Shown piece after piece: positions 3,315 through 64,000 of a stretch of 64,000 nucleotides of DNA (its first letter is position 1; each line of letters starts with the position of its first letter). The stretch lies in IMG/VR virus record IMGVR_UViG_3300035698_000446; one strand, given 5' to 3'. The notes beneath the pieces are model-generated. The model saw nothing but the letters and a program-made list of their open reading frames with translations. It ran no database searches and was not told the DNA's origin. This DNA comes from an uncultured virus (IMG/VR IMGVR_UViG_3300035698_000446) (lineage: Duplodnaviria > Heunggongvirae > Uroviricota > Caudoviricetes). A program made the translations under genes and the position numbers.

Positions 3315-3345
3315 CGTTGTACTCCAATTATACAGTATTTATCCG

Positions 3346-3382: not shown

Positions 3383-3399
3383 TTTATTTTTCGTCTGTA

Positions 3400-7366: not shown

Positions 7367-7465
7367 GGTATTTTTCCTCTATATAGGTTACTTTAAACTA
7401 TTTATGATTATTTTGTTTTTTTGGTGGTGTTAGCCTGCCCTTTTAAAGGTTCGCTAAATAACTGT

Positions 7466-7816: not shown

Positions 7817-8453
7817 CAGAAAGAAACTCCTCAACTTGATCATATAGATCATCAAGTGTGTGATCATTGGTCATAGTTGCATCAAACTTTTGACCTACCC
7901 AACTGTACTCGCTAGCATGTACCTCTAACTCTTCTAATTTGGACCTACTTATTGCCCAACTAAAGTTTTGTTTAGGCCCTTTGTTATATTGTACTGCCGA
8001 ATTATACCACTCAGGTTCCGGCCCACGCTTAACCCTAAGTACTTCGCCACCCATTGTTTTAATTGCTTTGAGCTCATTGGGGAAACGGCAGTCTGTAATT
8101 ACTATGTCGTCTTTGGTATTTGCTAGTTTGTGTTCTAAGCTGGCTATCCACATGTTGTTGTGGAATGTTTTGCGTACTACATCAGTTCCCCAATACTGTA
8201 ATACCCATCTAGGAGTTAGATGTGGCATATTAAGTCGTTTGGCCCACCATTGGTCTACAGTTTCTCTCCACTCGCGGCTTTGTTTGCTACGACCTTCTAA
8301 GAGGTCTCTATCCCAATCAAATGCGGCCGCTACTGCGTCCTTTAATGAATCTGCGAATGATTCGCGTTTGTATCCATGAATGTTGACTAGGTAGTCGGCA
8401 ATAGTATCTTTGCCACTGCCCATAAAACCACATATACCAATTATTGATGACAT
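7767..8453 (-). CDS. gp1: Deoxynucleoside monophosphate kinase (T4 gp1-like)
   Basis: P-loop 'IIGICGFMGSGKDT', 'SFADSLKD', 'TPRWVLQYWGTD', 'ITDCRFPNE', 'HASE'. Confidence 0.9.
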   Translation of the reverse strand: MSSIIGICGFMGSGKDTIADYLVNIHGYKRESFADSLKDAVAAAFDWDRDLLEGRSKQSREWRETVDQWWAKRLNMPHLTPRWVLQYWGTDVVRKTFHNNMWIASLEHKLANTKDDIVITDCRFPNELKAIKTMGGEVLRVKRGPEPEWYNSAVQYNKGPKQNFSWAISRSKLEELEVHASEYSWVGQKFDATMTNDHTLDDLYDQVEEFLSVNSPELDRLESNQVLL

Positions 8454-12476: not shown

Positions 12477-13910
12477 ATGGCGGCACTTCAACAGTTTTTT
12501 TATGATGCTCAGATTGAGCGATTCCTGGCACAGTTTATTAGGATGACTTCAGGATTCCAAGTGGAGTTTGGCAAAGACAGAGATGGCAACAAGACATTAC
12601 AAAGAGTTCCTGTTTACTACGGAGATGGTAGTCGACAAGTAGCATCAATACTTAATAATATGAGTGAAAATGCTATGATGGCAGTTCCGGCGATGACTGT
12701 GTACATTAATAATGTGACCTATGACAGAGATCGGGTGCAAGAACCTAACTTTGTTGGTAAGATGAACATACGGCAAAGAAACTACAACGAAGAAACACAA
12801 GAATATGAGGCAAAGCAAGGCAATGCATTCTCAATTGAGAGATTGATGCCTGTGCCATACACATTAGAACTTAAACTAGATGTGTGGACTAGCAACACTA
12901 AACAAAAACTACAACTGTTAGAACAATTGATAGTGTTGTTTAATCCGGCATTAGAAATACAATCAACTGACAACTACATTGATTGGACTAGTTTAAGTGT
13001 GGTTTATCTTGAAAATCCAAATTGGACAAGTCGTACTGTGCCAATTGGTACTGAAAATCCCGTTGATGTTGCTACATTAACATTCAAACTACCAGTTTGG
13101 ATTAGCCCTCCTGCAAAAATTAAAAAATTAGGGGTTATACAAAAGATTATTGCTAGCATACACGACAGTGATGGCAATCTTAGCGAAGATGTATACAATA
13201 GCACTAATTTAATGGGAGCGAGACAATACTTTACTCCATTGGATTACGGTGTGTTATTGATTGGTAATACCCTTACCTTATTAAAATACAGCGAGTTTGA
13301 AGACCCGCGTGATCCACGGACGGAATTAGTTCCAAAATATCCTGTTACCGAAACTCCGGTTAAGGTTGGTACTAGAGACGTATGGCGAGATCTTATTAAC
13401 GTTTATGGTGTTCTTGAAAATGGGATTAGCCAAGTTCGATTATTAACCCAAGATGGTGTTGCTGAAGTAGTTGGTACTGTAAGTTTTCATCCTACTGATG
13501 ACAGCCTGCTAATATTTAATGCCGACATTGACACATATCCGGCTAACACATTGGACCCAATTGACGCTATCATTGACCCACGCAAAGTTACAGTAGATGC
13601 TAGCATTACGGCCCCTGCCACTGGCACTAGATATCTATTATTGCATGGTGTTGGTAGTTTTGACAATCCATCCGGAACTGGGCCAAGTGCTTGGCGCGGC
13701 AGTGACGGGCAGGATTTAGTAGCCAATGCCAACGACATCGTGCAGTACAATGGCACACACTGGGTAGTAGTATTTGACAGCCCAGCGGCAGATAGTGTAC
13801 AATATGTAAGTAATCTAAATACTGGAACTCAATATAAATGGAATCTCGATCAGTGGGTAAAAAGCTGGGAAGGCGAATATAAGGCAGGATTATTTACTTT
13901 AGTTCTTTAA
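12477..13910 (+). CDS. gp15: Tail sheath stabiliser/terminator (gp15-like) with C-terminal extension
   Basis: 'FFYDAQIERFLAQF', 'RVPVYYG', 'YDRDR', 'MPVPYTLELKLDVW', 'QLLEQLIVLFNP'. Confidence 0.82.
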   Translation: MAALQQFFYDAQIERFLAQFIRMTSGFQVEFGKDRDGNKTLQRVPVYYGDGSRQVASILNNMSENAMMAVPAMTVYINNVTYDRDRVQEPNFVGKMNIRQRNYNEETQEYEAKQGNAFSIERLMPVPYTLELKLDVWTSNTKQKLQLLEQLIVLFNPALEIQSTDNYIDWTSLSVVYLENPNWTSRTVPIGTENPVDVATLTFKLPVWISPPAKIKKLGVIQKIIASIHDSDGNLSEDVYNSTNLMGARQYFTPLDYGVLLIGNTLTLLKYSEFEDPRDPRTELVPKYPVTETPVKVGTRDVWRDLINVYGVLENGISQVRLLTQDGVAEVVGTVSFHPTDDSLLIFNADIDTYPANTLDPIDAIIDPRKVTVDASITAPATGTRYLLLHGVGSFDNPSGTGPSAWRGSDGQDLVANANDIVQYNGTHWVVVFDSPAADSVQYVSNLNTGTQYKWNLDQWVKSWEGEYKAGLFTLVL

Positions 13911-14612
13911 TTTACATTTTTCACCGTGCCACCTTTTAAAATTTCCTGCATCGATAGTTAATAAACAATATTTACATTGTAAATATTTTTTAGGTATTGG
14001 GTTTTTTAATATTTGTTCAGACAGCATTTTTTTTACTTCCATACTATGAGTTTTGCCATACATTGGGTTTTTTTCTTTTACTAATTTACCTTTCATTGCA
14101 ATTGACATCTTTTTTAAGGTTTCATCAGATCTATTTTTTCCGTATGATGGATGATTAACTCCTATTCTATTAAGTTTGTTTTTTTCCCAACTATCTCTAA
14201 GTTTCTTTTTAGTTTCTTCTGAACGTTTTTTACCAATATGATTATTATTTCTTTGTAGTAATTGCCATTCTTTATTATTAAACGGATTAATTCTATTAAA
14301 TTGTATTTTGAGTAATTCGTACTTTCTACCTGTTATTTTATATCTATGCTGATTTTTTGATTTAGCCATCATTCTATTCATAGCAAAAATCATTTTATTC
14401 TTTTCTAGCCCATTTACCATTTTAGTAAGTAGCCAATGGCATATAAAATGTTGTCTACCTGTTAATTTGATCATATTAGATTTGTCATTAGTTCCCCCGA
14501 TACTCTTAGGTATTATATGATGATTTTCTGTATATTCATCATTAGGGGTTGTATTTGCTGAATTAATTATGTTATAATAAAGTTTAGTATATTTGTTATC
14601 AATAAATATCAT
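13899..14612 (-). CDS. Free-standing HNH homing endonuclease with NUMOD3 repeats
   Basis: 'ENHHIIPKSIGGTNDKSNMIKLTGRQHFICHWLL' plus repeated 'GKKRSEETKKKL / YGKNRSDETLKKMS / NPMYGKTHS'. Markedly AT-rich, antisense to neighbours. Confidence 0.88.
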   Translation of the reverse strand: MIFIDNKYTKLYYNIINSANTTPNDEYTENHHIIPKSIGGTNDKSNMIKLTGRQHFICHWLLTKMVNGLEKNKMIFAMNRMMAKSKNQHRYKITGRKYELLKIQFNRINPFNNKEWQLLQRNNNHIGKKRSEETKKKLRDSWEKNKLNRIGVNHPSYGKNRSDETLKKMSIAMKGKLVKEKNPMYGKTHSMEVKKMLSEQILKNPIPKKYLQCKYCLLTIDAGNFKRWHGEKCKLKN

Positions 14613-32628: not shown

Positions 32629-33177
32629 TTATAGCGTTCCTATTAATTCTTTATTTTTTAAATAAGCATCTCTTCTTGCCTGAGTCCATTGTGTACCTTT
32701 GATTCCTTTATTCCATGGTATATTACCTTTAAGAGTATTAGATATCTTTTGTCTTACTTCGTTAGCAACATGTTTTCCTAAATTAGCTTTACGTATATTT
32801 TCTGCATGTTCTTTAGTTTTAGGTTGTCTATATTTTTGTTTATGTTCTTCTGTTCTTACTTTGCCGCGATTGGCTTTACTAATTTTGTGTTTAGTTTCTT
32901 CAGAATGTTTCCATCCTGTTGCACAAGCCCATTGATTTAATTTTATATTATCTAATACGCCACCGTCAATCTTTCTACCATATTCTCTAATCAATTTATT
33001 TTCTAAATTAAATGCCTGTTCTTCGGTTAAGGCCGATTTAACAATTATGCGTCTTTCAATGGGAGGCACTACCGTATATAGATGTTTTTGTCTAATACGA
33101 TACTTTGATCCCTTACCGATATAATAAGGGGTTCCTTGTTCAGTAACATACTGGTAAACATAAAATTCTGTTGTCAT
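32629..33177 (-). CDS. Free-standing GIY-YIG homing endonuclease with NUMOD3 motifs
   Basis: 'FYVYQY...PYYIGKGSKYR', 'AFNLENKLIREYGR', 'HSEETKHKISKANRGK'. Confidence 0.85.
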   Translation of the reverse strand: MTTEFYVYQYVTEQGTPYYIGKGSKYRIRQKHLYTVVPPIERRIIVKSALTEEQAFNLENKLIREYGRKIDGGVLDNIKLNQWACATGWKHSEETKHKISKANRGKVRTEEHKQKYRQPKTKEHAENIRKANLGKHVANEVRQKISNTLKGNIPWNKGIKGTQWTQARRDAYLKNKELIGTL

Positions 33178-36365: not shown

Positions 36366-36902
36366 ATGACTAATATAAAAAAATTTAGAAATAAGATACT
36401 GGAGACCCCTAAAATACTCAGCACAGGTAATCCTAATAACAGCTTATCTTTAGCGTACGGAATATCTACAGTATTACCAGATGTTGAGTTTATATCTAGA
36501 TCAACAGGGTTTGATTTAAATTTAACGCAGGAGGTTAATTTAAACAAATTTATTAGTAAGATTAAAGAATATAATATCTTTATAAATCTCAGCTACATAG
36601 ATGTTGGCTATCAGGTCAATCTTTTAAATACAATATACAATGTTTGGAAATTTGGACATGTAATAAACATCGGCAGTGTACACGATTGTATAGAATCTAG
36701 ATACGGGCATGATAAGAATATATTAAGATCTCGTAGTTTAGAATTAAACAACTATCGCATAAGAAGTTCTTATATATGTTTAGGTGAAATATCTCAAGAC
36801 CACTTAACCCCAATAGATGTTGGTCAGGTAATTACTTGGATATTGTCATCAAAATTTAACATACCAATTATTGGGTACGAACCAGAGAAAGGCCCGTGGT
36901 AG
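36366..36902 (+). CDS. Short-chain dehydrogenase/reductase-like protein (degenerate)
   Basis: 'SRSTGFDL', 'IFINLS', 'HVINIGS', YxxxK ('YGHDK'). Confidence 0.6.
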   Translation: MTNIKKFRNKILETPKILSTGNPNNSLSLAYGISTVLPDVEFISRSTGFDLNLTQEVNLNKFISKIKEYNIFINLSYIDVGYQVNLLNTIYNVWKFGHVINIGSVHDCIESRYGHDKNILRSRSLELNNYRIRSSYICLGEISQDHLTPIDVGQVITWILSSKFNIPIIGYEPEKGPW

Positions 36903-37834
36903 CATATTCTCCATCAAACATACACCAAAAACCTAGGTTGCAGATCGAACCAACAACTAGGTGTGTGCTAGGATGTCCTGCATGCTCAAGAACTGTTTTT
37001 TCTAAAACGTTAAAAAGACCTTATCCTAAGTATGATCAAAATGTCGATGATTTATATCAATTCTTAGACTGTGAGAAAGGACACGAGATTAAAACATTAA
37101 GTTTGTGTGGAGATCACGGCGATAGTATATATTACCCAAATTTATTTGATATGATTGACCGCTTTAGGTATAAAGATCTTGAATTATACACAGCAGGTAG
37201 TCATCAGTCTAGAGTGTTTTGGGATAAATTAGCCAACAAGATGACTGATCAGGACGTTGTGTTTTTTAGCATAGACGGTCTTAAAGATACTAATCATTTA
37301 TACAGAATAAACAGCGATTGGGATTCAATCATGCTAGGGTTAGATATTATGACAAACAGCCCGGCTCGTATAATATGGGATCTTAACGTGTTTAGCTTCA
37401 ACGAACATGAACTTAGTAATATTAAAGATTTTGCTAATAGCAAAGGTGCTGAGTTTAGATGCAAAAAAACGCCAAGGCATGGCAGTGACTCATTAATTCC
37501 ATCAGATACAACGTACATTGACACTTCTGCGATGTATAACAAATTGTTGTACAAAGACATATCAATTACCCCAAAATGTAGTGAAGAACATCAAATATCT
37601 GCAATGGGATATTATTGGCCTTGCGGGTATATACAATATCCATTTACATTATACAAAAGTAAAGTATGGAAAGAAAGAGACCAATGGCAAATTAAAGGAC
37701 AAACTTTAGATCAAGTGTCGACCAAACTATTATCTTGGAAACAAGAAATTGCTAATAATCCGCAGGATGCAGAATCTATATGTAAAATGAAATGTAAAAC
37801 CAACCAAGAATCAATCTACGTAGTTGATATTTAA
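36896..37834 (+). CDS. Radical SAM protein with C-terminal Cys (twitch/SPASM-like) region
   Basis: CxxxCxxC 'CVLGCPAC', 'LCGDHGD', 'FSIDG', C-terminal 'C...WPCG...CKMKC'. Confidence 0.88.
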   Translation: MVAYSPSNIHQKPRLQIEPTTRCVLGCPACSRTVFSKTLKRPYPKYDQNVDDLYQFLDCEKGHEIKTLSLCGDHGDSIYYPNLFDMIDRFRYKDLELYTAGSHQSRVFWDKLANKMTDQDVVFFSIDGLKDTNHLYRINSDWDSIMLGLDIMTNSPARIIWDLNVFSFNEHELSNIKDFANSKGAEFRCKKTPRHGSDSLIPSDTTYIDTSAMYNKLLYKDISITPKCSEEHQISAMGYYWPCGYIQYPFTLYKSKVWKERDQWQIKGQTLDQVSTKLLSWKQEIANNPQDAESICKMKCKTNQESIYVVDI

Positions 37835-38233: not shown

Positions 38234-38272
38234 GAGAATATCCTTACACCATTTCCACAGAACAGTAACAAG

Positions 38273-38301
38273 AAAGCACTCTTAATTGGGTGCTTTTTTT
38301 T
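38273..38301 (+). terminator. Intrinsic terminator
   Basis: AAAGCACTC-TTAATT-GGGTGCTTT followed by T-run. Confidence 0.8.
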
Positions 38302-38469
38302 GACGGTGTTTTCTAAGACAACCTAACAGAACGTTAAGTCGTAGTTATCGCATAATAAAGATATTGCTTACTATTAAAAGATGTCTTTGACATCTAACTT
38401 CTCGCTAACACTCGAAGTTCTTTTCCTTTAATCTAATTACCTTATATTACTTTGATATACTGTATGTTC

Positions 38470-38817
38470 TTAACTGCTTTATCTAGATCTTTCAGCCATA
38501 CTTCACCTACTGCAAGGCAAAGTATGAAAGACACTTTATCTGAGTCTTACGCACATACTAACTAAAAGAGATTGTTTACATAACACGGAGGCGGTCAGCC
38601 TGTACCCCCTACTCTTGCTTCATCTGGCGGATGCTTTGATAACCGTAGTTAGCCAATTATCAAAGTCACGTAGGTTGCTTTTTCTCAGAGCCTACATCTT
38701 TTGGTTTTTAAACCTATAGAATGCCGTGTCGTCCTGTGTGTAGTCTTCTCTACACGTTCCAAGTAGGCATAACCTACCATCTCCCCAGGACACAGAATAC
38801 ATCTGCATCATTGACTG
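38470..38817 (-). ncRNA. Candidate large structured non-coding RNA (unassigned family)
   Basis: ORF-free, GC-enriched stretch with at least 7 helices, a long-range helix and two possible pseudoknots. G-U pairs favour the minus strand. Starts at the GIY-YIG stop codon. Confidence 0.55.
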
Positions 38818-39267
38818 CTATATTTTTTTTAAATCTTCTACTAGAATATTTTTTACGGAACCTATTCCAAGTCTAATATTAATGATCCCATTGTAGTTAT
38901 CATCTCTCAATAGGACATCTTCTTTAAACTGAAAATACGCCTCCATATAGTTGGTCTCACCACGTGTTTTACACAAATATAGTATTTCACGAGTGAACTT
39001 TTCTTTTCCTAATTCTTCGACATCTCTAACCAACCTTTCGGATGATCCGTAATATGTTTTCCAGTCTGTTTCAACTGTTTCTCTACGTTTATTTTTCTTG
39101 CCTTTTAGAGGTGGTCTCTTTTTGATAGTCCAGAAAAATTTACGACCTACGTAATCGTGTCCGTTTTCTGTGTTTGTGATTCTGTATACGAACCCGTAGT
39201 TGTCACCGATGTCCTCAGACTCAAAGGCAGTACCGTTATAAGTCCAAGGATTATCGTATGATGACAT
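38818..39267 (-). CDS. Compact GIY-YIG nuclease (catalytic domain only)
   Basis: 'GFVYRITNTENGHDYVGRK', 'YYGSS', 'FTREIL', 'NYMEA', 'NYN'. Basic insert 'KKRPPLKGKKNKRR'. No NUMOD DNA-binding tail. Confidence 0.8.
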   Translation of the reverse strand: MSSYDNPWTYNGTAFESEDIGDNYGFVYRITNTENGHDYVGRKFFWTIKKRPPLKGKKNKRRETVETDWKTYYGSSERLVRDVEELGKEKFTREILYLCKTRGETNYMEAYFQFKEDVLLRDDNYNGIINIRLGIGSVKNILVEDLKKI

Positions 39268-39440
39268 TATCCTGCGTTTTTCTTATCTTGAATTTCTGCT
39301 CGACGTGCTTTTGCTAGTTTAGCTAGATCACCTAGTGCTTTACGTGCCCTAGTACCCGCCGATTTATTACCGCCTTCAAACTTGGCACTTTCAGCCACAT
39401 ATGAGTCTAATTGTGCTAAAATATCTGTATGAATTGACAT
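39267..39440 (-). CDS. Histone H1-like (Hc1-family) small basic protein, 57 aa
   Basis: Below track cutoff. MSIHTDILAQLDSYVAESAKFEGGNKSAGTRARKALGDLAKLAKARRAEIQDKKNAG, with SD TAAGGA and TAATG overlap with the GIY-YIG gene. Confidence 0.78.
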   Translation of the reverse strand: MSIHTDILAQLDSYVAESAKFEGGNKSAGTRARKALGDLAKLAKARRAEIQDKKNAG

Positions 39441-39731: not shown

Positions 39732-40835
39732 TTAATTAGTTTCATAACCAACAGCATAATCATGATCAACTATATCTGAACTGCATTTATATTGGCATTC
39801 AGTCCAGCTGGTGTCTTTGTTATCTAAATGATTAAAAAAGGATTCCCAAATCGGATCATTTAATATTTCTTCTAACGTTCTTTGATTTAAATTTAACCGC
39901 GATTGATTTACGGTAAAGAAGTCATCTTCAAAACTTATGTGTTTGGCGTCGGATGTTAAACTACTGTAAGGTAACCCTTTCCAACTACATGGATATAGTA
40001 TTCCATTTGCATTGACATACATTCCTTGTGTACCTATTAGGCACAAAGGTGTTATAGCTCGATTGTACTTATCCTGAATCTTATTAAAATGAATTTCTTT
40101 AGTTTTTATGTAGTCAGTGTTATCTAACGCCCTTGATGTAACAGGAATCATTATCCGTTCGTATCTATTAGTAGTACTAATAAACTCTGGCCTAGGCTCT
40201 AGAGGATCATTAGACCCCCCATAAGTTTCGTCATACTTGCTACCAAATTTGGTACTTTTAGTTAATTGCACAGCATCACATCCTAGTTTCCTTGCCTGTT
40301 CAACTATGTTATTAATTTTATCCTGATTGTATTTAAAAATAATTGTAGCCCAATTAACAAATGCATCAGACTGCTGAGCCATAATTTCTATGCCTGTCAT
40401 AATACTGTCCCAATTGCTATTGATCCTGTAGATGTTGTTTGACTCTTCGTCAAACCCGTCTATACTAAAATTAACAGTGTCTCGACTGTTACTAATCTGA
40501 GCAAATTCTTTCCACCAGTTAACATCCTTGTAACTGCCATTGGTTATTGTAAACAGATGTATGTTGGGGTTAGTAGATTTGATGTACCTACATATTTCTA
40601 AGTATTCTTTGTTATATATTGGATCACCAAGATCACCACACATGGTGATACGTTTAACAGTGTTAGTAAGCAGGTTGGGGGACAGTATTTTTTGGAAGGT
40701 AGCTAATGTAATATCAGAATTTAATTTTAACTGCTCCTGATATTCTGTTCTAGGACAACGCGGACATTTTAAGGTACACTTGCTGGTGATGCCAAAATGC
40801 CAATGATATAGTTGCCATGGATATATTAAGTTCAT
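39732..40835 (-). CDS. Radical SAM protein with twitch/SPASM-like C-terminus
   Basis: 'CTLKCPRC', 'MCGDLGDP', 'TNGS', 'FSIDG', 'C...YVNANGILYPC', 'CQYKC'. Confidence 0.9.
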   Translation of the reverse strand: MNLIYPWQLYHWHFGITSKCTLKCPRCPRTEYQEQLKLNSDITLATFQKILSPNLLTNTVKRITMCGDLGDPIYNKEYLEICRYIKSTNPNIHLFTITNGSYKDVNWWKEFAQISNSRDTVNFSIDGFDEESNNIYRINSNWDSIMTGIEIMAQQSDAFVNWATIIFKYNQDKINNIVEQARKLGCDAVQLTKSTKFGSKYDETYGGSNDPLEPRPEFISTTNRYERIMIPVTSRALDNTDYIKTKEIHFNKIQDKYNRAITPLCLIGTQGMYVNANGILYPCSWKGLPYSSLTSDAKHISFEDDFFTVNQSRLNLNQRTLEEILNDPIWESFFNHLDNKDTSWTECQYKCSSDIVDHDYAVGYETN

Positions 40836-44286: not shown

Positions 44287-45774
44287 CCCGTATCCCATTG
44301 CTTTGGCAATATCTGTGTGAGTTTTTAGAAAATTTTGATTACGTAGTCGATCAAATCGACGCATCTCTTTGCAAAATTCTTTGCCGTCACCTGGTTTAAT
44401 GTTTGATATTTTATCAATGATTCCTCTGACCTTTTCTTGATCATCTGAGCTGAAATTATAATTAGATAATTTATCAAGTACTAATTCTTTAGCTTGTGCA
44501 GTTAAGCTATCAACAGCCAGGTACGTTGGGGCAGTAACATAGTTTAAATAATAACTATCGACCTCAATTAAATTTGCCCAATCAATAATTTCTGGCAGAT
44601 AAAAGACATTCTGTATATTCACAGTGATGGCAATATCGATTTTAAGACTTTTTATTTTTTTTCCTAGCTTAACGAATTTTCTTATATTATTTTCTACATC
44701 TGCCCATTTAGCACCAGATCTTTCAAGTTCGAATCGATCGTCAATATTGTCGATACTAATGGTGATTTCTAATTTCTTTAGTTGATCTGCATGATCTAAA
44801 ATTTTAGGATACTGCGTACCATTAGTATTAAAATAAAATATAGTATCGTGACCAAGATCATTTTCTATTAGAAATTCGATGAAATCATTATTTTGTTTTA
44901 ACAGAAAAGGTTCGCCACCTAAGAATTCAAAATTCTTAATTTTTGGTGCTAGTTGTTTAACTTGATCCCAAAAAGTTGTGCCAGATGCCCAAGAAGCTTC
45001 GTGTGAGATAGTATAGTGTTTAGATTTTTTTTGATCAACTCTTGGTAATTCACTCAGTAATTCGTTTGCAATAGACGAACTAAATGCACTACTACAAATC
45101 CGACATTTTAAGTTACATAAATTTCCCATATGGCCGCCAAGAAATGCTAACTGACCTTCTTGCTCCCAATTAATTAATCCATAGATATTTTCAAGTTTAT
45201 GAGGAGTTAGCGTTCTCTTACTATCTAATTGTAGTTCTTCTCTTTGCCAACAAATCTGGCAGTTATTGGCTTTTTTGTTCTCTCTGAATTGCTGTCTCAG
45301 ATCCTGCATCCATGTACTATCTAATATCTGTTCTATGGTATTTTCTTTGATATTATAATACTCTCCGTTGGGTTTAGTAATTTTTTGAGTAGAATCACAG
45401 CAAGCACCACAAGTTCCGTCAGGCCACACATGGATACCTGCCCAGGCATGAGCACACATTGAATTAGCTATGTTAAATACAGGCTTGTGTTCAGTAGTAT
45501 CAGATTTTTTAAACTCGTAATCGGCAAATTGATAAGTTTGATGACTATCTACTACTAAAATAAAAAAGTCTGGAATATCTAAGTAAACTATTGTATCTTT
45601 GATATGCTGGATCAGATCCGAGGGTAACGGGGTGTAATTATAAAAAACAATTCGTTTAGGATTGTGAAAAATATCACGTTTTACTGAATTTAGGAAACGA
45701 TAAAAACTAGAAGATTCTTGAGTTAACAAGTCTTCTAATACTATGCTGTCTAATACTTGATATTGGTCAAGCAT
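44284..45774 (-). CDS. Radical SAM protein with N-terminal twitch/SPASM-like domain
   Basis: 'CAHAW..IHVWPDG..GACC...CQICW' precedes 'CNLKCRIC', 'GGEPF', 'NTNGT', 'ISID'. Confidence 0.88.
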   Translation of the reverse strand: MLDQYQVLDSIVLEDLLTQESSSFYRFLNSVKRDIFHNPKRIVFYNYTPLPSDLIQHIKDTIVYLDIPDFFILVVDSHQTYQFADYEFKKSDTTEHKPVFNIANSMCAHAWAGIHVWPDGTCGACCDSTQKITKPNGEYYNIKENTIEQILDSTWMQDLRQQFRENKKANNCQICWQREELQLDSKRTLTPHKLENIYGLINWEQEGQLAFLGGHMGNLCNLKCRICSSAFSSSIANELLSELPRVDQKKSKHYTISHEASWASGTTFWDQVKQLAPKIKNFEFLGGEPFLLKQNNDFIEFLIENDLGHDTIFYFNTNGTQYPKILDHADQLKKLEITISIDNIDDRFELERSGAKWADVENNIRKFVKLGKKIKSLKIDIAITVNIQNVFYLPEIIDWANLIEVDSYYLNYVTAPTYLAVDSLTAQAKELVLDKLSNYNFSSDDQEKVRGIIDKISNIKPGDGKEFCKEMRRFDRLRNQNFLKTHTDIAKAMGYG

Positions 45775-56100: not shown

Positions 56101-56528
56101 AGAACTATAAGACAGTGTCGGATACAGTGATATATAATCCTGCTAAGTTTAAACCTATCTTTGGTGGCAAGGCAGAACCTGCACTGCAGGCAACGTTTAA
56201 AGTAGTCAAAAACTCTAGCGTGGTTGTCAGTGATAATAACGTGAAGACTAGTGTGATTGCGGCAATCAATACTTACTTTGATTTAAACAATTGGGACTTC
56301 GGAGAAACATTCTACTTCAGTGAACTAAGTGCGTACCTCCACAGCGTGTTGGCTCCGAACATAGCCAGTGTGACCATAGTTCCAAGCAGTGCAACCGAAA
56401 CCTTTGGTAGTCTCTTACAGATCAATGCAGAGTACAATGAGATTATCGTAAGTGCGGCCACGGTAGATAATGTGCAAATTATTACAGCTATTACAGCCGC
56501 ACAACTTAATCAAACCGTGACAGCGTAA
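53148..56528 (+). CDS. gp6: Baseplate wedge protein
   Basis: 'DYETLRKSM', 'ENFIDTAQRRDSVLKLARLISYNPKR', 'FGDG', 'ETVEEVRQKAPQQYYTQDRMVTGEDY'. Confidence 0.9.
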   Translation: MAITTRQSSLLVAEDWTKLYQTFRNADFQSYDYETLRKSMVDYLRLYYPEDFNDFIESSEFIALIDLLSFLGQSLAFRGDLNARENFIDTAQRRDSVLKLARLISYNPKRNIPANGLLKIDSVSTTETVYDSNGLNLSGLVINWADSANDNWQEQFNAVINSSLNTTQSIGKPSNSKLINSILNEEYQINLVPNITATYAFSAAIEGSQTSFEMVSPTSAGQSYIYEVAPRPTSSFNILYKNDNLGNGSNNTGFFMYFKQGGLKSIDINFQESLPNRAYNVNVDNINNLDVWLYKLDSNGNIDTLWTPVPSVGATNIIYNTSTNKNIYQVNTRAGDQIDLIFGDGSFATMPQGRFRLYYRTSNGLSYKISPDEMRGIVIPINYVSKAGRIETVNIRASLRYTVTNATARETVEEVRQKAPQQYYTQDRMVTGEDYNILPYTLFNSVLKVKGVNRTSSGISRYLDVIDSTGKYSSTNIFCQDGILYKDEITDTFSFSFVTTSDIYKVITNQIISLLKKKDTLQFFYSNYAQIGVTNTYWNKALDDAGITGYFYDATDNILQVGHYVSDSKKYVKQGSIVKFSAGAGKYFDAQNTIKTGTPNNAGDKYYIYAEIIEVLADGTNGGEGNLANGSGPITLNQIVPTGAEAIRVFPVFNNTLTTAVTTSMVDYIQAFKDFGLRYDVTTSAWTIITPENMNNGAFNLSAAGNTSSAGLDSSWLIRFQTVGQTYSVYYRGLQYVFESVRETNFYFDEAVKIYDPRTGFTIRDQINVLKMNTNPDDSNPLALEYQWHIYDNVVETDGYSNPNKVLVTFPDSNDDGVPDNPELFEILVSPTTLTAQKYVYFQNTYGYDNFVIQTSVSNSLVVSTYNSLVALETAKTLYQHGQLFYIPSTDKFYQLAISGAVYTVSVVTGYTAKVGRQDIYFQYRHSSPNNRRIDPSPNNIVDLYILTKSYATDYLAWLQDTTNTVVQPTAPTPEVLGTDYSNLENYKTVSDTVIYNPAKFKPIFGGKAEPALQATFKVVKNSSVVVSDNNVKTSVIAAINTYFDLNNWDFGETFYFSELSAYLHSVLAPNIASVTIVPSSATETFGSLLQINAEYNEIIVSAATVDNVQIITAITAAQLNQTVTA

Positions 56529-56557
56529 ATGAATACTATTCAAAAGATGAGAAAATA

Positions 56558-59500
56558 ATGGCCGCAAGAAAAAGCATAAATTTACTTCCTGGTGTATTTA
56601 GAACTGATGTTAACGAAAAGTTTCTAAATGCTACAGTAGACCAGCTAGTTAGTGAACCATCACTAACAACTCTTTATGGCTATATTGGTCGTCAATTTTC
56701 TCCAACATATCAGAAAGGTGATAGTTATGTTACTGAAGGAACAACTAAACGTCAGGACTATCAGTTAGAACCGACTACAGTAATAAAAAATACTAAAGAC
56801 GAAACAACATTCTTTGCTAGTTATTTAGATTTCCTTAATAAGGTTAACTACTACGGTGGATACACTAATAACCACAGTAGGTTATTTGCCAGCGAATACT
56901 ACAGCTTTGACCCACAGATGTCATATGACAAGTTTGTAAATTTTGGACAATATTATTGGTTGCCTAATGGCCCATCCACAGTACAAGTAAACACAGGTGG
57001 AGTTGAACTAATCAAAGGTTATACAGTTTCTCGCAACGATAACCAAAATCAATATGACTTTACTTCTGAAGGAGTACAGAACAACACATTGATATTGGCA
57101 CGAGGTGGCACATACACCTTTACAGTAAATCAGTCAGCTGGATTTTGGATTCAAACAGAACTAGGCATAGATGGATTAATTAATGTTACTCCAACAATTA
57201 GTAGTAGAGGGGTGTTGGGAGTAGAAAACAACGGAGCTAACGTTGGTACAGTAACATTTACAGTGCCACAATCAGATGCCCAAGATAGATTCCTAGCACA
57301 AAATACAGTAGCAACTGTTGACTATGCACTTCCGTTGGCATTTTCTAAAGTACAAAATAGATTACTAAGTTCTTTCTTAGAAGAATTTCCACAGTTTGCT
57401 GGACTTGCTGGTCAGTTAGACGGTAAGACTGTAGTATTTGTTTTACAGGACCAATTAACGAATGTAGAAGATGCGTGGACAGTAGCATACGAGAATAGTG
57501 GTGAATCAGTTGAATTTGATTTTGGGGACATAGTTCCTGAGGGAAGTAGATACGGCGTGTGGGAAGTACAACTAATTACTTCCGGTAGTGATCAGCTTAT
57601 TAATATATACCCAACAACTAGTATACCATTTGATAATAAAGTGTACGTCAAGTCAGGCATAAACTATGTAAACAAAGAATTTTACAAAGAATATACCGCT
57701 TTCCTCGAACCAGTTCCAGTTATATCCAGTATCTTAGATACGCTATGGATCCAAGACGGTGAGAGAGCAGACATCTACACCAAGATTAAAATCGTAGAGT
57801 TTAATAATTTTACCATTGACGTTGACAATGATATTTTAAATGAGTCTACATATACCAGTCCCAATGGTATAGAATTTACCAGTGGATTAAAAATACAATT
57901 TGACAATGATGTTACTCCTGCCTCATACCAAGGAAAAACATACTATGTAGAAAATGTTGGAGAAGCAATTAGATTAGTCGACGAAACATTGTTAGTAACC
58001 CCTGAGTTGTACAACGACGAAGTAGCAACAAACTACCCGTTGCAACGTGTAATGCTGACAAAGTCGACAACAGGAATAATCCCCGGAGGTACAATAATTA
58101 CAGTTGGCACTAGCTCAATTGAAGTTTACACCGATATAGCGATCGGGTCAACAAAGATAACTACCCTTGACTCAATAGCAAACATTGATAAGGGACAAGC
58201 AGTAAGTGGGCACAACAGCATAGCCTCAGGAACAACTGTTTACGAGGCTTTTCCGGATAAAGTATTTCCAGACTATATCACAATAAAAAGAGACGCATTA
58301 GATCTAAATGCATGGTCACGTAGTAATCGCTGGGTACACTCTGCAGTCATTGAAGCCACAGCAACTTACAATTCTGAGATATTAGTTCTCTCACAAGACT
58401 TGCGTGCTCAACGTCCTATAATACAATTTGAAGGTGACCTGCAACTATTCAACCATGGACGAATTGGTAAGCGGCATATTGATATTTTAGACACTGTAAT
58501 CACAGACGCTTTTACAGAGCTAGAAGGTAAAACATTAACAACAGCATTTGGCATCACATTGTTTGATGGCATGCGTGTACTATTTGCTAACGACAATGAT
58601 CCATTGGTAAAAAATAAAATATATGTTCTTAATTTAGTACAATATGAAGTTGACTCAGATGGTGCACCAGAAGGCACATTCCATATCAACTTAACTAAAG
58701 CAGACGATGGTGATGCGGAAGAGTGGGACTCAGTAGTAGTTGGTGCCGGTAGATACAAAGGCAGTGCCTGGTGGTATAACGGAACACAGTGGAATGAAAG
58801 TCAACAAAAAACAGCGGCACAACAAGATCCATTGTTTGATGTTTACGATAATAATAATAGAAGTTTGTCAAACACTGACTATTATCCACGCAGTAGTTTT
58901 GTTGGAACAAAATTATTTGGATATCAACGTGGAACAACAGGAACCAACGACAGTGTTTTAGGCTTTCCGTTAAGCTATAGGAGTTTTAATAGTCAAGGTG
59001 ATATTCTTTTCTCTAACTATTTTAATACTGATAAGTTTGATTATGTGATTGACCAAGACGTTACAGAAAAAAGTACTAATATTGGATTCTTGCAGTCTAT
59101 ACAGTCTAATAGGACAACCACACCTAAAAATACTTGGCACACAGTCAACGAACCTAGCAAGCAATATCAGATATTCGCATTTGAATACGACGGAACAAAT
59201 AATCTATTTGCACTAGACGTTACGCCAAAAAATCAAAATGTACATGGGTTCTCAGATACGATTCCTTATGTTAAAGTTTATCAGAATCAAAAACTACTAA
59301 AACAGACACAGTGGACTATATCAGCTACAAACAAGATAACGCTGAATACTACGTTGGTCCAAGGTGATACTATTAATGCATTAGTTTATAGTGATCAAAT
59401 TAGTAAAGAAGCATACTATCAAGTTCCTTTAAACTTAGATCTAAATGCACAGAATACTGATATAACGTCATTGACGCTTGGACAAATTAGAAATCACGTT

Positions 59501-62500
59501 GTGGCATTAGGAACAAATAGCACGGCATTAGTAGGAGACATCCTTGGGCTATCAAATCTAAGAGACATAAGCATCACTGGCCAAGGTGGTAGTATATTAC
59601 AACACAGTGCACCTATTCCTTATGCTGAACTATTCCTGATAGATGACAAAGCAAACTTTGTTGATGCAATTCAATATGCACAGAGAGAGTATGCAAAATT
59701 TAAGAACAAGTTTCTTGAGTTGGCGGTATCATCTCCAGGCATAGATTCGTCAGACCCTGTCGCTAGCGTTGACATCATACTTGCACAAATAAACATTAAT
59801 AAGAATGTTTCATCACCATGGCATTACAGTGACATGATTCCATACGGAACATTGAAGAACGTTATAACATACAGTGTGTTTGATCCGTTTGTTCTTAGTT
59901 ATGAAATTACAAATGTATTTTCGTCCACAACATTAACTAACCAAGCAGTGTTAGTATACCTAAATGGCACACAATTAATATTAGGCAAAGACTACTCATT
60001 TGATGCCACAAGGCCAGCAGTTACCTTTGATGTTAATTATGTGACATTTGCTGTTGGTGACGTAATAACCATGGTTGAATATGCAAATACTGATGGTTCT
60101 TACATACCAGAAACTCCGTCGAAACTTGGCACATATCCAAAGTTTATGCCAGAGATTATTACTGATGACACTTATAGAACTGCGATCACTGTGATACGTG
60201 GTCACGACGGTAGCATTACACCTGCATTTAGTGATTACAGAGATACCCTGCTTCTTGAATTAGAAAAACGTATCTACAACAACATTAAATTACCAGACAG
60301 CAATACATATCAAAATGAATTGCTTTCTGCAATGCCAGGCAAGTTCAGAGAATCTGGATATTCTTACTCAGAGGTGTGGAACGTTACATCAAAAGGGTTT
60401 ATGACCTGGGTTGGCAGGAACAGAGTTGATTTCAGTACTAACAGTTCATTCCAAAGTAACGAACCGTTTACATGGAACTATTCAAGATTTGTTGATCGCA
60501 TCGACGGCGAATACCTGCCAGGCAGTTGGCGTGCAGTTTATCAATACTTCTATGACACCATATATCCACATATCCGACCATGGGAAATGTTAGGTTTCTC
60601 AACAAAACCAAATTGGTGGGAAGACCGTTATGGCGCAGGACCATACACAGGCGGTAACAAACTGTTGTGGGATGATCTAGAAGCGGGTCGAATATACGGT
60701 GGCCCGCGGTCGTTGGTTGACATGGGATCGGGGGTTGGTATAGATACAAACTATGCTCGTCCAGGACTGTCACAGATTATTCCAGTAGATCAAAACGGAT
60801 ACTTATTAAGTCCAGAGAAAGTAGTGGCGTTAGCATCAAATTCTATAGATGCCGCAACATCTTGGGCAACCGGACAATTGGGGCCAGTTGAATGGGCGTG
60901 GAGAAGCAGTAGTGATTATCCATATGTCTTGCAACAAGCTATGGCATTACTTAAACCAGCAGTGTATTTTGGCAGATTCATTGACACGTATAATATTCGC
61001 TACAATACTAGCTTACGCCAATATCTGACATTTGTTAATAATCATCATGTTAGACAGGATGAGATAGTATACAATGGTTATATAGACCCATTATTACCAA
61101 CAGTCATTAACAGGGGCGCCGGTTATCTAAATTGGATCGCTGACTATTTAAAAAATCTTGGCATAACACCGTCAGTAAAAATTAATACAATGCTAGAAAA
61201 CTATAATGTTAAATTAGCATATAAGATGGCAGGATTCAGTGATAAGAAATATTTACAGGTTCTAGCAGAGCAAAGCTCACCAACAAGCACCAATGCTAGT
61301 ATCATGATTCCAGATGAGAACTATGACGTCTTATTGAATAAGTCAACACCACTTAGCAAATTAACATACAGTGCTGTAATTGTTGAAAAATCAACAAATG
61401 GCTTTAGTGTGCGAGGCTATGATTTACACAAACCTTACTTCACTATCATTCCCAGTATTGCTAATAATAATGGATATGGCATTACGGTTCAAGACGAAAC
61501 AGGATATGTCTTCAATGACTATCAGTCTGTAAAATTAACAGTACCATACGGTTATGAATTTAAGACCATACAGCAGGTAGTTGACTTCCTTATAAGTTAT
61601 GAGAGACATCTCATAGCACAGGGCTTTACCTTCAATGATAGAGATGGTGATCTCGGTGAAACACGTAACTGGAAATTAAGTGTTAGAGAATTTTTATTCT
61701 GGGCACAGCAAGGATGGAAACCAGGTAGCATATTGGTATTAAGTCCAGTTACAAATAGTATAAAAGTAGTAACACAAGGTAACATAGTTGACGGCATCGA
61801 AGACAGTCAACACGGTAGTAAAATCGTAGATCAAAATTTTAATCTAGTAAAAAATACTGGATATCAGATTACACGTAGTTCTAATAACTTTAGTGTTACA
61901 TTATCAGATGACAATGTATTGGCCCTGGTTGAATTGGCCCTGGTGCAGTATGAGCATGTGTTAGTCTTTGACAACACCACAGTGTTCAATGATGTGATAT
62001 ATCGTCCTGAGTTAGGCAACAGACAATTTAGATTAAAACTCATTGGGCAAAAGACAGACCTTTGGGATGGTAGCATGTATGCTCCAGGATTTGTTTACAA
62101 CAACGAAACCGTACCAGAATGGCAAGTCGGGGTTGACTATCTTAAAGGCGACCTAATCGTATACAAAGAGCAATATTATGTAGCTTTAAAAAATGTTCCC
62201 GGCACGACAGAATTTAATTTTACTACCTGGAAACAGATACCTAAATCAGAAATAAAATCTGGATTGCTCAGTAACTTCTCAACTACTGCTGTTGAGTCTC
62301 AAAGTTACTATGACAGCTACGGCAAGATACGCGATAAAGATCAGATGGCATACAGTCACGGTCTAATTGGATATAAACCAAGACAGTATCTAGACGACCT
62401 AGGGTTAACTGAAACAACACAAATTGAATTTTATAAAGGTTATATAAAACAAAAAGGAACAAAGAATGCGATTGATGCATTAACTAAAGCAAACTTTAAT

Positions 62501-64000
62501 ACACTTTCTAGCAATATTAATTATTATGAAGAATGGGCGATTCGCACAGGCGAGTATGGCGCGATAACTTCTAATCCTTATGTTGAAATTGCTCTTGACG
62601 AAAAAGCAATATCAGTTAATCCAGCTACTATAAAATTTGTTGGAACTGATAATGCTAACGAAGGTAATGGATTAGACACATTTAATCAAGGCCAACTTTA
62701 TAAATTCTTTGATCAGTCTGGCGCTAAATTCAATGGCAATATTGCCATCAATAGAGATAGCCACAGTAACTATGACAACGACATCTTAACTGCTGGATAT
62801 GTTAACATTGATGACGTAGATACAACAATATATGACATAGCTGACTACTCTACGTTAGATAATTTAACTGATGTCATTGGAACAGGATATACAATATGGA
62901 CTGCTAAAGACTTTACAGGAAAATGGAATGTCTATAGAGTGTCTGAAACAAACAATCAAGTAGTATTATTAACTAATGCCTTAGATGGTTATGTCACTTG
63001 GACGTCATCAGGACAGCACGGACTAGTTAAAGACGATATATTTTTAGTACGTGGGTTTGATGTTAATTTTGATGGTTTCTATCAAGTGTACAAGACACCC
63101 GACCTTAAGAGAGTTACAGCACAATATCTTGGTAACCCTGACAATCTAGACGATCTTAATACATCCAATGGCACTGGTATGTTGTTTGTGTTAGATAGCC
63201 TAAGATTTCAATACATGGAAGATTCTAGGGTATTTGGATTAACTGATCCTAAACAAGGGTGGCGTGTAGGTGATAAGATTTGGATTGATAATGACGGTGA
63301 AACCACAACGGCGCAAGGGCAACCTTATGATGTACCAAGTGGTGGCTGGAAGGTATACGAAAAAACTAAACCGTGGGATTATAAAGAGTCCCTATTAAAA
63401 TCTAGTTCTGAATATGCAACTAATGGGTACGGCCAATCAGTTAAATTTAGTTATGACGGACTTTTAGCAACAGTAGGAAGTCCCTTTGCAAATACTGTTC
63501 CGTACTATAGTGGTGGTGCAGAAGTGACCACTGGTCGAGTTAATACATTTGATAAAAATTATGCAGGCAATCTTGTAGCAGGCACTAGTTTAGTGCCAGC
63601 CGCTGGTAATGCAATAGTGGTTACAAGTGAATTTGGGCACAGTATTGATCAGGCAGTTGAGAAGGTTGCCATTGGTGCACCTGGTAGCTATGGAAATATT
63701 GGTTTAGTATATCTCTACAATAGACCTGCAGGAACTACTTCATTCAATGAGCCACAGGTACTGTGGAGCAAGGATGTTACCACAACCGGAGATAGATTTG
63801 GGTCTAGCATATCACTAAGTGAATATGGTGAATGGCTATATGTAGGCGCCCCGGGAAACGACAGAGTATATGTATACGGATTAAACACTCACGTATCATC
63901 AGAACAAGATATTGTATCAATTAATAACCGTAACACCCTACGACTTGACGGTAATGTTGCTGCCTTCGTGGGAGACTATGTTACGTATCCATTAACTGGA
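56558..64000 (+). CDS. Giant baseplate/virion protein (gp7-like position), partial, >2480 aa
   Basis: Absent from track because it is unterminated. ATG 56558 (MAARKSINLLPGVFRTDVNEKFL...) is in frame with the last codons (...VTYPLTG) at 64000. Has FG-GAP-like propeller repeats near the end. Confidence 0.85.
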   Translation, partial: MAARKSINLLPGVFRTDVNEKFLNATVDQLVSEPSLTTLYGYIGRQFSPTYQKGDSYVTEGTTKRQDYQLEPTTVIKNTKDETTFFASYLDFLNKVNYYGGYTNNHSRLFASEYYSFDPQMSYDKFVNFGQYYWLPNGPSTVQVNTGGVELIKGYTVSRNDNQNQYDFTSEGVQNNTLILARGGTYTFTVNQSAGFWIQTELGIDGLINVTPTISSRGVLGVENNGANVGTVTFTVPQSDAQDRFLAQNTVATVDYALPLAFSKVQNRLLSSFLEEFPQFAGLAGQLDGKTVVFVLQDQLTNVEDAWTVAYENSGESVEFDFGDIVPEGSRYGVWEVQLITSGSDQLINIYPTTSIPFDNKVYVKSGINYVNKEFYKEYTAFLEPVPVISSILDTLWIQDGERADIYTKIKIVEFNNFTIDVDNDILNESTYTSPNGIEFTSGLKIQFDNDVTPASYQGKTYYVENVGEAIRLVDETLLVTPELYNDEVATNYPLQRVMLTKSTTGIIPGGTIITVGTSSIEVYTDIAIGSTKITTLDSIANIDKGQAVSGHNSIASGTTVYEAFPDKVFPDYITIKRDALDLNAWSRSNRWVHSAVIEATATYNSEILVLSQDLRAQRPIIQFEGDLQLFNHGRIGKRHIDILDTVITDAFTELEGKTLTTAFGITLFDGMRVLFANDNDPLVKNKIYVLNLVQYEVDSDGAPEGTFHINLTKADDGDAEEWDSVVVGAGRYKGSAWWYNGTQWNESQQKTAAQQDPLFDVYDNNNRSLSNTDYYPRSSFVGTKLFGYQRGTTGTNDSVLGFPLSYRSFNSQGDILFSNYFNTDKFDYVIDQDVTEKSTNIGFLQSIQSNRTTTPKNTWHTVNEPSKQYQIFAFEYDGTNNLFALDVTPKNQNVHGFSDTIPYVKVYQNQKLLKQTQWTISATNKITLNTTLVQGDTINALVYSDQISKEAYYQVPLNLDLNAQNTDITSLTLGQIRNHVVALGTNSTALVGDILGLSNLRDISITGQGGSILQHSAPIPYAELFLIDDKANFVDAIQYAQREYAKFKNKFLELAVSSPGIDSSDPVASVDIILAQININKNVSSPWHYSDMIPYGTLKNVITYSVFDPFVLSYEITNVFSSTTLTNQAVLVYLNGTQLILGKDYSFDATRPAVTFDVNYVTFAVGDVITMVEYANTDGSYIPETPSKLGTYPKFMPEIITDDTYRTAITVIRGHDGSITPAFSDYRDTLLLELEKRIYNNIKLPDSNTYQNELLSAMPGKFRESGYSYSEVWNVTSKGFMTWVGRNRVDFSTNSSFQSNEPFTWNYSRFVDRIDGEYLPGSWRAVYQYFYDTIYPHIRPWEMLGFSTKPNWWEDRYGAGPYTGGNKLLWDDLEAGRIYGGPRSLVDMGSGVGIDTNYARPGLSQIIPVDQNGYLLSPEKVVALASNSIDAATSWATGQLGPVEWAWRSSSDYPYVLQQAMALLKPAVYFGRFIDTYNIRYNTSLRQYLTFVNNHHVRQDEIVYNGYIDPLLPTVINRGAGYLNWIADYLKNLGITPSVKINTMLENYNVKLAYKMAGFSDKKYLQVLAEQSSPTSTNASIMIPDENYDVLLNKSTPLSKLTYSAVIVEKSTNGFSVRGYDLHKPYFTIIPSIANNNGYGITVQDETGYVFNDYQSVKLTVPYGYEFKTIQQVVDFLISYERHLIAQGFTFNDRDGDLGETRNWKLSVREFLFWAQQGWKPGSILVLSPVTNSIKVVTQGNIVDGIEDSQHGSKIVDQNFNLVKNTGYQITRSSNNFSVTLSDDNVLALVELALVQYEHVLVFDNTTVFNDVIYRPELGNRQFRLKLIGQKTDLWDGSMYAPGFVYNNETVPEWQVGVDYLKGDLIVYKEQYYVALKNVPGTTEFNFTTWKQIPKSEIKSGLLSNFSTTAVESQSYYDSYGKIRDKDQMAYSHGLIGYKPRQYLDDLGLTETTQIEFYKGYIKQKGTKNAIDALTKANFNTLSSNINYYEEWAIRTGEYGAITSNPYVEIALDEKAISVNPATIKFVGTDNANEGNGLDTFNQGQLYKFFDQSGAKFNGNIAINRDSHSNYDNDILTAGYVNIDDVDTTIYDIADYSTLDNLTDVIGTGYTIWTAKDFTGKWNVYRVSETNNQVVLLTNALDGYVTWTSSGQHGLVKDDIFLVRGFDVNFDGFYQVYKTPDLKRVTAQYLGNPDNLDDLNTSNGTGMLFVLDSLRFQYMEDSRVFGLTDPKQGWRVGDKIWIDNDGETTTAQGQPYDVPSGGWKVYEKTKPWDYKESLLKSSSEYATNGYGQSVKFSYDGLLATVGSPFANTVPYYSGGAEVTTGRVNTFDKNYAGNLVAGTSLVPAAGNAIVVTSEFGHSIDQAVEKVAIGAPGSYGNIGLVYLYNRPAGTTSFNEPQVLWSKDVTTTGDRFGSSISLSEYGEWLYVGAPGNDRVYVYGLNTHVSSEQDIVSINNRNTLRLDGNVAAFVGDYVTYPLTG

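Follow-up and report, generated by a model that had tools for sequence, protein, structure and literature searches.

A large, doubly pseudoknotted non-coding RNA next to a compact nuclease gene in uncultured T4-related jumbo phages

What is made from the several hundred non-coding nucleotides (nt) that directly follow a small nuclease gene in the genome of an uncultured T4-related virus? The locus lies in a stretch of 64,000 nt (here called the window) from IMG/VR record IMGVR_UViG_3300035698_000446, and an earlier note, made from that stretch, had proposed that a compact GIY-YIG nuclease is followed there by a pseudoknotted RNA of ~350 nt with which it might form a ribonucleoprotein; a ribozyme-like RNA and a replication primer were its other two suggestions. 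Comparative analysis shows that the locus encodes a large (~440 nt), multi-domain, doubly pseudoknotted non-coding RNA, which belongs to a new family and is found once per genome in uncultured aquatic T4-related jumbo phages. The best explanation for this RNA, and one that we regard as about evenly balanced between right and wrong, is that it is an independent structured RNA of the phage that forms the 3' end of a recombination-nuclease operon.

The structured RNA is encoded on the minus strand at 38379..38817 (~439 nt), from the first base past the GIY-YIG stop codon to the end of a hairpin called P16 (RNA coordinates q convert to window positions as 38831 - q). The start at the nuclease stop codon is thus as first described, and the length is greater, since an AT-rich linker and two 3' hairpins belong to the molecule. 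The only open reading frame (ORF) of at least 40 amino acids (aa) in the region is a 51-aa antisense ORF that overlaps the RNA 5' end. The G+C content of the RNA core (0.43-0.445) stands above that of the surroundings (~0.33). When the 559-nt intergenic sequence was used as a query, it matched 75 of 80 loci that had been fetched through the nuclease protein, with 72-94% identity over ~450 nt; the contigs of the other five end 2-900 nt past the gene.

The reality of the RNA is established by covariation in two sets of sequences. The first, alignment A1, holds 37 sequences filtered to less than 96% pairwise identity. RNAalifold predicts 84 pairs from A1, 44 of them with compensatory changes, and a hand-curated structure has 109 pairs in 19 helices, the two pseudoknots included. 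In the curated structure 92.8% of cells are paired, versus 34-43% when the partners are slid against each other, and 62 of the 109 pairs have changed on both sides, a value reached by none of 500 shuffles. The second set, alignment A4, was drawn from 91 other sources, mostly metagenome loci and loci with a nuclease of the PD-(D/E)XK type, which gave 75 distinct sequences; it was built with a covariance model of the central domain from which the pseudoknots had been left out. Here 97.4% of the central-domain cells are paired (37-50% when slid) and 26 of 36 pairs covary. Seven G-U pairs are invariant in A1, and so the RNA must be read from the minus strand. The fold of the single sequence is moderately unusual (z = -3.3), and the proof of the RNA fold is comparative rather than single-sequence.

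The most conserved part is the central domain (38557..38665), made of helices P8 to P11 and the pseudoknots PK1 and PK2. P8 (38665-54/38645-34), in which 9 of 12 pairs covary in A1, carries the loop GCUAACUA, and this loop pairs with UAGUUAGU downstream to give PK1 (38653-46/38564-57). PK1 is 100% paired in A1, where 4 of its 8 pairs covary, and in the 75-sequence set 7 of 8 covary and 93.9% of cells are paired. In very divergent relatives the two strands differ and still remain complementary, as in CAGACCA/UGGUCUG (locus L158) and AUACUAU/AUAGUAU (L120). PK2 joins a CAG to the loop of P9 (38626-24/38598-96); all three of its pairs are 97-100% paired in the 75 sequences, with exchanges of CG to UA and of GC to UA or CG, so that two pairs covary and the third varies on one side only. 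P9 itself (38609-04/38592-87) is 99% paired in A1, and the domain is completed by P10 (38616-12/38570-66) and P11 (38585-82/38576-73). The hairpins at 38665-34 and 38609-587 and the pairing of the P8 loop had all been described before from the single sequence, and they hold. The crossing helix AAGAG/CUCUU, now P10, holds in its four inner pairs (4 of 5 pairs covary in A1, and 3 of 4 in the 75-sequence set) and fails in the outermost one, which is unpaired in 34 of 37 sequences; over the whole helix 81.6% of cells are paired in A1. RNAalifold predicts a pairing of CUAGA with UCURG that is 96% paired, shows no double change and competes with P10, and it may be an alternative contact.

Upstream of this core lies the 5' domain (38728..38815), whose helices P1 to P5 are drawn from A1. 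P1 (38815-13/38730-28) and P2 (38806-02/38796-92) are followed by P3 (38791-86/38736-31), which is 100% paired with double changes in 4 of 6 pairs and which encloses P4 (38778-73/38767-62; 6 of 6 pairs covary) and P5 (38755-50/38743-38; 5 of 6). These correspond to the helix at 38791-86/38736-31 and the hairpins at 38777-63 and 38755-38 of the earlier note, all of which are borne out. The long-range helix that it drew between 38730-24 and 38588-82 has to be given up: its cells are 70% and 41% paired, no compensatory change occurs, and it clashes with P1, P9 and P11. In PD-(D/E)XK-type relatives the 5' domain has been greatly altered and the central domain has not, and the 5' domain is therefore taken to be peripheral. 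Between the two domains, the P6 and P7 region (38668..38714) holds helices that are 93-100% paired with covariation in A1, namely the P6 hairpin (38714-12/38705-03), with a conserved UAAAA loop, and the P7 hairpin (38697-91/38674-68), the previously noted hairpin at 38695-70, in which 5 of 7 pairs covary. Two RNAs carry lineage-specific insertions with an unchanged core, one a hairpin of ~40 nt in P11 (L158) and the other ~55 nt past the 5' domain (L033).

The 3' domain contains a twin motif. Loop R1 (GACUCAGAUAAAG; 38534..38546) lies inside a weak hairpin, P12 (38548-44/38532-28), which is paired in one register in 63.5% of A1 cells, and loop R2 (GAUCUAGAUAAAG; 38477..38489) matches R1 at the variable positions. 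Between them stands the 13-bp hairpin P13 (38496..38527), 99% paired in A1, with R1 and R2 on its flanks. Both the hairpin, first drawn at 38530-489 (4 of 13 pairs covary), and the duplication of AGAUAAAG beside it are thus real. R1 and R2 are 13 nt each and 57 nt apart and share the consensus N-A-Y-Y-Y-R-G-A-U-R-A-W-G. Of 97 unique sequences, 93-96 have R1 and R2 in agreement at the variable positions, and 82 have them so at a four-state position. Three further positions have two states each, and seven of their eight possible combinations occur; in one lineage both copies share a 1-nt insertion.

Several familiar motifs were considered for these loops. The CsrA consensus has a GGA in its loop, and about half of the RNA family has AGA instead of GGA, so a CsrA-type reading was rejected. 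Readings as C/D-box/K-turn elements or as a CRISPR-like repeat-spacer-repeat were likewise rejected: the repeats differ at positions that do not vary in those motifs, and the 'spacer' is conserved.

Downstream of R2 the RNA runs through a variable, poorly alignable AT-rich linker (38420..38476) and ends in two conserved hairpins, P15 and P16 (38379..38419), that are supported by covariation. All six pairs of P15 (38419-14/38401-396) covary in A1; P16 (38395-89/38385-79) is invariant in GIY-type RNAs and shows compensated changes in PDDEXK-type RNAs. These two hairpins, PK2 and the concerted changes of R1 and R2 are additions to what had been described. The G+C content falls to 0.315 at 38300-38499. 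Four loci of the PDDEXK type (L120, L131, L143 and L159; oriented coordinates ~2699-3406) have a co-directional ORF of 235 aa after R2, in place of the linker; it weakly matches the arginine-tRNA-protein transferase C-terminal domain. Beyond the RNA, a terminator-like fold (38272..38300) lies between the convergent units.

The P13 5' strand has a second possible partner. Its CAUAC (38526-22) can pair with a GUAUG upstream of R1 (38558-54) that duplicates the P13 3' strand, and this alternative helix is paired in 85% of cells, with 2 of 5 pairs covarying. The competing pairings hint at a conformational switch adjoining PK1.

Could the RNA be a member of a described family? None of the 4227 families of Rfam 15 matches anywhere in the window at the gathering threshold, and a cmscan at E <= 10 of the window and of six divergent homologues leaves the RNA without a match; the models without a match to the RNA include those for the group I intron, RNase P, tmRNA, GOLLD, ROOL, HEARO and ARRPOF. 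The placing of the RNA outside the known families, a point that had been left to an Rfam comparison, is thereby upheld. The weak Phe_leader match of the permissive cmscan covers only the terminator-like hairpin and its T-run. ARAGORN finds no tRNA or tmRNA in the 64-kb window. A divergent member of one of these families (group I intron, GOLLD, ROOL, HEARO, RNase P or tmRNA) might have been missed by the searches, since Rfam models can miss divergent members, and group I introns often hold GIY-YIG genes. The resemblance to an intron with a homing endonuclease gene is that of a GIY-YIG ORF beside a pseudoknotted RNA. Here, however, there are no flanking exons and no RF00028 match, the topology of the helices is at odds with the P3/P7 arrangement, and the upstream genes are contiguous and overlapping: the GIY-YIG ORF shares one base with the ORF before it, to which it is translationally coupled, and no minus-strand ORF follows the RNA before the convergent gene. 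The group I intron was accordingly rejected, and a missed family of any of these kinds appears very improbable.

By kind, though not by homology, the molecule does fall among the large ornate phage RNAs, being longer than 300 nt, multi-helical, phage-encoded and non-coding, with covarying pseudoknots. It resembles GOLLD and ROOL in its several hundred nucleotides, its many conserved helices and pseudoknots, its phage origin and the lack of a fixed protein partner. GOLLD and ROOL have tRNA genes in their neighbourhood, whereas the 64-kb window of this RNA has none; this RNA also differs in matching no Rfam model and in its place at the 3' end of a nuclease operon in T4-related jumbo phages. GOLLD and ROOL form homo-oligomers, as PMC12286853 states. 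No description of the RNA was found in the literature searched: its core motif has no match in passages and supplementary files of PMC10690425 other than files 1, 2 and 4 (a fragment may be among the 8,495 short candidates), and neither the RNA nor the nucleases come up in passages from the Minerva preprint and from PMC12619734.

The RNA is widespread among uncultured viruses. A core search pattern of 28 nt occurs in no fewer than 120 IMG/VR stretches and in at least 120 from the metagenome collection, some contigs being common to both, and has 0 matches in 185,579 prokaryote species genomes. A covariance model, named R1, finds exactly one copy in each of six IMG/VR phage records (G001-G006) and has no match in seven cultured phages (PA5oct, Atu_ph07, Vibrio phage 2.275.O, Phosso, Sf-FS3, Melnitz-3 and phiN3), and blastn against 50,697 phage records gives nothing to the RNA, only two short matches in protein genes.

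The gene before the RNA (38818..39267, minus strand) encodes a 149-aa protein consisting of a GIY-YIG nuclease domain only. Residues 8-124 match PF19835, the SegE GIY-YIG domain (E 3.6e-40), and the protein also matches phrog_447, a PHROG family of 148 positions (E 2.6e-43) that is widespread in T4-like phages. Among 21 homologues (70-92% identity) the GIY and YIG motifs, with Y24/G25/F26/Y28 and Y39/G41, are invariant, as are Glu109 and Asn126, and both the motifs and these residues fit the GIY-YIG superfamily with a SegE-type domain. An AlphaFold2 model (pLDDT, the predicted local distance difference test, 84.6) has as its closest fold in Foldseek the I-TevI catalytic domain, a weak match (E 0.033, probability 1.00; every E-value is above 0.001), and a sequence search of the PDB with both nuclease types gave chance matches only. 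That the protein lacks a DNA-binding tail was seen correctly at the outset, as it has no NUMOD or helix-turn-helix region. The Lys/Arg-rich 'insert' of the earlier note, RPPLKGKKNKRR, is invariant in the 21 homologues and lies inside the Pfam match, and is therefore a family feature; it models as a beta hairpin within the GIY-YIG domain. Homologues are encoded by 452 phage records, mostly of cyanophages and often labelled 'SegE' or, wrongly, 'NAD synthetase', and the protein is an ordinary member of a widespread domain-only family. It shares its catalytic domain (PF19835) with Seg-type endonucleases and I-TevI and differs from them in having no DNA-binding domain and in being present in every genome of the clade rather than sporadically. 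A free-standing Seg-like homing endonuclease was rejected on these grounds: the gene is in all loci of the GIY clade and has diverged vertically (70-100% identity).

How tightly does the RNA go with this nuclease? The viral set consists of the loci fetched through the protein and the core-pattern matches listed, duplicate contigs included. The GIY-YIG gene is directly upstream of the RNA at 139 of these loci, as first noticed in the window, and is separated from it by an interposed gene at 19; at 16 an unrelated nuclease, PDDEXK_15 (PF24608, phrog_244), occupies the same slot directly upstream, and at 15 the flank is too short to tell. Four more PDDEXK-type loci exist that are too divergent for blastn. 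Among 120 metagenome loci, GIY-YIG is adjacent at 73 and PDDEXK at 21, GIY-YIG with an insert is found at 4 and PDDEXK with a longer gap at 2, the flank is too short at 19, and neither nuclease is seen at 1, the flank there being taken up by inserted genes. In the viral set, what is interposed is an SGNH-like ORF, radical S-adenosylmethionine (SAM) ORFs or a gene for a Seg-like endonuclease, and the RNA abuts whichever ORF lies upstream, be it GIY-YIG, PDDEXK, SGNH-like, radical SAM or Seg-like homing endonuclease.

These counts bear on the proposal of the earlier note, drawn by analogy to TnpB and its omega RNA, that nuclease and RNA form a ribonucleoprotein. In such a particle the RNA would scaffold, guide or regulate the domain-only nuclease, R1 and R2 would be twin recognition loops, and GIY-YIG and PD-(D/E)XK would be interchangeable. 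A nuclease is directly adjacent in 94 of the 101 metagenome loci with enough flank, and lies within ~1.3 kb upstream in 100 of them. Each genome has exactly one nuclease of either type, always next to the RNA: G002-G004 have one PDDEXK and no SegE-type protein, G005 and G006 the reverse, and the two types never occur together. Both types are catalytic domains only, and R1 and R2 co-vary as programmable elements would. On the other hand, one nearly unchanged RNA core would have to serve two unrelated folds, PDDEXK_15 being found in the same slot in several deep lineages, and genes are interposed at 19 viral and 4 metagenome loci. The RNA of the PDDEXK-type locus L158 is closest to GIY-type RNAs (70% identity), which argues that the nuclease has been exchanged without remodelling of the RNA. 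The R-motif variants do not sort by nuclease type, and four partial genomes hold no matching R1/R2 target.

Both nuclease families also occur without the RNA in cultured phages. In Melnitz-3, phiN3 and Sf-FS3 the gene for the compact GIY-YIG protein is present, with 28-149 nt to the next gene and no RNA; the annotated Holliday-junction resolvase of Phosso, a phage that likewise has no RNA, is homologous to the PDDEXK protein (37% identity) and lies ~1 kb from gp46. Beside this resolvase homologue Phosso (L205) has ~1 kb of unannotated sequence (7411-8424) with no ORF above 74 aa, which may hold a different RNA; covariance model R1 has no match in that stretch. The exchange of nucleases, the interposed genes and the RNA-less homologues together argue against a nuclease-specific ribonucleoprotein, though not against a looser functional link, and we consider such a particle unlikely. 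The sequence comparisons indicate instead that PD-(D/E)XK was probably the ancestral nuclease of the slot and that GIY-YIG replaced it in place in one clade, leaving the RNA unchanged.

The comparison with RNA-guided nucleases fails at other points as well. The locus is like the omega RNAs of TnpB and IscB and the reRNAs of IS607 elements, as described in PMC11061315, in having a structured RNA directly downstream of a compact nuclease gene. Unlike those systems, it has a GIY-YIG (PF19835) or PD-(D/E)XK (PF24608) nuclease rather than RuvC, no transposon ends and no terminal guide, and its nuclease type can be exchanged and genes interposed. Both ends of the RNA are conserved, so that no variable guide is found there, and the single variable stretch, the internal linker, drifts gradually with indels and is not hypervariable. 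In a further version, a modular phage ribonucleoprotein would have this RNA as its shared subunit; the RNA would position an exchangeable domain-only DNA nuclease, and R1 and R2 would pair with two copies of a nucleic-acid target. This version seems to us unlikely as well. If it were true, an RNA-positioned nuclease would be a new kind of RNA-directed nuclease beyond RuvC and HNH.

Two further alternatives were weighed. In the first, the RNA is a cis-acting element of the 3' untranslated region that stabilises or processes the mRNA, possibly by cleaving itself just past the stop codon; a variant would be a ligand-responsive switch governing read-through, whether into the baseplate genes of the convergent unit or, in a single lineage, into a gene downstream. 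This would fit an RNA that always begins at the upstream stop codon, the switch-like pairing beside PK1, the co-directional ORF after the RNA in the L120 group, and an RNA-library contig that bridges the border between ORF and RNA. Most lineages, however, have no downstream gene on the same strand, and the size and conservation of the RNA are far above those of known 3' stabilisers, so we judge a cis-acting element to be unlikely.

In the second alternative, the locus is a replication-origin element whose transcript is a structured pre-primer, in the style of ColE1 RNA II or of a T4 R-loop origin. This transcript would hybridise at the AT-rich linker, with R1 and R2 serving as DNA repeats of the iteron kind and with the structure-specific nuclease next door as the enzyme that processes the hybrid. 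The ColE1 pre-primer is a folded RNA of ~500 nt whose alternative foldings matter, and the phage RNA is like it in size, in possible alternative foldings and in its AT-rich neighbour. The order of elements is also suggestive, with concertedly evolving direct repeats, then a variable AT-rich stretch, then inverted repeats that are conserved, all within a replication/recombination operon at a convergent junction, and with an alternative pairing available. Unlike RNA II, however, this RNA has pseudoknots, an invariant core, conserved hairpins past the AT-rich part and no known antisense regulator. P15 and P16, which lie there, covary as RNA; two pseudoknots and an invariant core exceed what primer RNAs are known to need; and the turning points of the cumulative GC-skew, in themselves uninformative, are 7-13 kb from the RNA rather than at the locus. 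An origin element is therefore improbable.

We return to the preferred explanation, an independent structured RNA at the 3' end of the operon. The RNA would have no promoter of its own and would be transcribed as the final part of an operon of gp47, gp46, the Hc1-like gene and the nuclease gene, beginning within ~20 nt of the stop codon of the preceding ORF, whichever ORF that is. It would act as an independent folded molecule and not as the partner of one particular nuclease. Its near-invariant central domain (P8-P11, PK1 and PK2) would be the functional core, perhaps a binding pocket or a catalytic centre, and the identical exposed loops R1 and R2 might recognise a partner that is present in two copies or as a dimer. 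The GUAUG/CAUAC/GUAUG arrangement may allow the 3' domain to switch between two pairings. The adjacent nuclease would be a phage structure-specific DNA nuclease that is held in place by synteny.

Some observations weigh against this explanation. A nuclease gene lies upstream at all but one of the informative metagenome loci, so that there may be a functional link to the RNA. No partner for R1 and R2 emerged, either as a complementary column inside the RNA or as a site within ~3 kb; in four partial genomes (the window, G002, G005 and G006), copies of a genome's own R motif are not in excess over foreign motifs and no orthologous 8-mer complement occurs. Matches to R1/R2 with two mismatches are at chance level in the window. 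RNA-library contigs from three studies cover parts of the locus, at low depth and with possible DNA carry-over, and scans for promoters and terminators stayed at chance level. Two of the contigs lie over 38599-38757, and a third crosses the stop codon, reaching from 38726 to 38952; parts of the stretch have no contig cover; the bridging contig fits co-transcription with the ORF, as weak evidence.

The setting is that of a T4-related myovirus. The window encodes the gp23 capsid protein, the gp20 portal, a prohead protease and a tail sheath, together with gp15, gp25, gp53-like and gp5-like proteins. Its recombination genes are a gp47-like phosphoesterase and a gp46-like SbcC protein, the latter closest (~50% identity) to homologues in jumbo phages that include Pseudomonas phage PA5oct, Agrobacterium phage Atu_ph07 and Sinorhizobium phage Phosso. 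Directly before the nuclease gene lies the 57-aa Hc1-like histone gene (39267..39440, minus strand; PF07432, E 1.7e-13), whose stop is the source of the one-base overlap with the GIY-YIG start and which in many loci stands upstream of the nuclease, whichever its type. The largest of the related IMG/VR records has 322 kb, with completeness estimated at ~90%, from which the virus is taken to be a jumbo phage with a genome of ~350 kb. Near-identical DNA was found in metagenome runs from salt-lake, aquatic and marine samples.

Other features of the window may be recorded here. Three radical SAM ORFs lie around the recombination genes, at 36896-37834 (plus strand), 39732-40835 (minus) and 44287-45774 (minus); the last two also match SPASM, and the first is weak, under the Pfam cut-off. 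Among the structural genes, two ORFs (13902-14612 and 32632-33177, both minus) have NUMOD3 motifs and are probably genuine free-standing homing endonucleases. A 143-aa ORF amid phage structural genes (1147-1575, minus) has a TnsA-like endonuclease N-terminal domain (E 3e-23). The ~7.5 kb at 56525-64000 have only four ORFs of at least 70 aa and may be a block of very small early genes or more non-coding sequence.

To our knowledge, only about a dozen classes of large bacterial and phage RNAs with complex folds are known, and we know of few characterised ones that are not ribozymes, scaffolds of ribonucleoproteins or unusual assemblies. A widespread RNA with unusually clear covariation and co-evolving loops is thus a well-defined new object for RNA structural biology and for phage biology. 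Its constant place beside one of two unrelated nucleases makes RNA-assisted DNA cleavage or primer processing a directly testable hypothesis.

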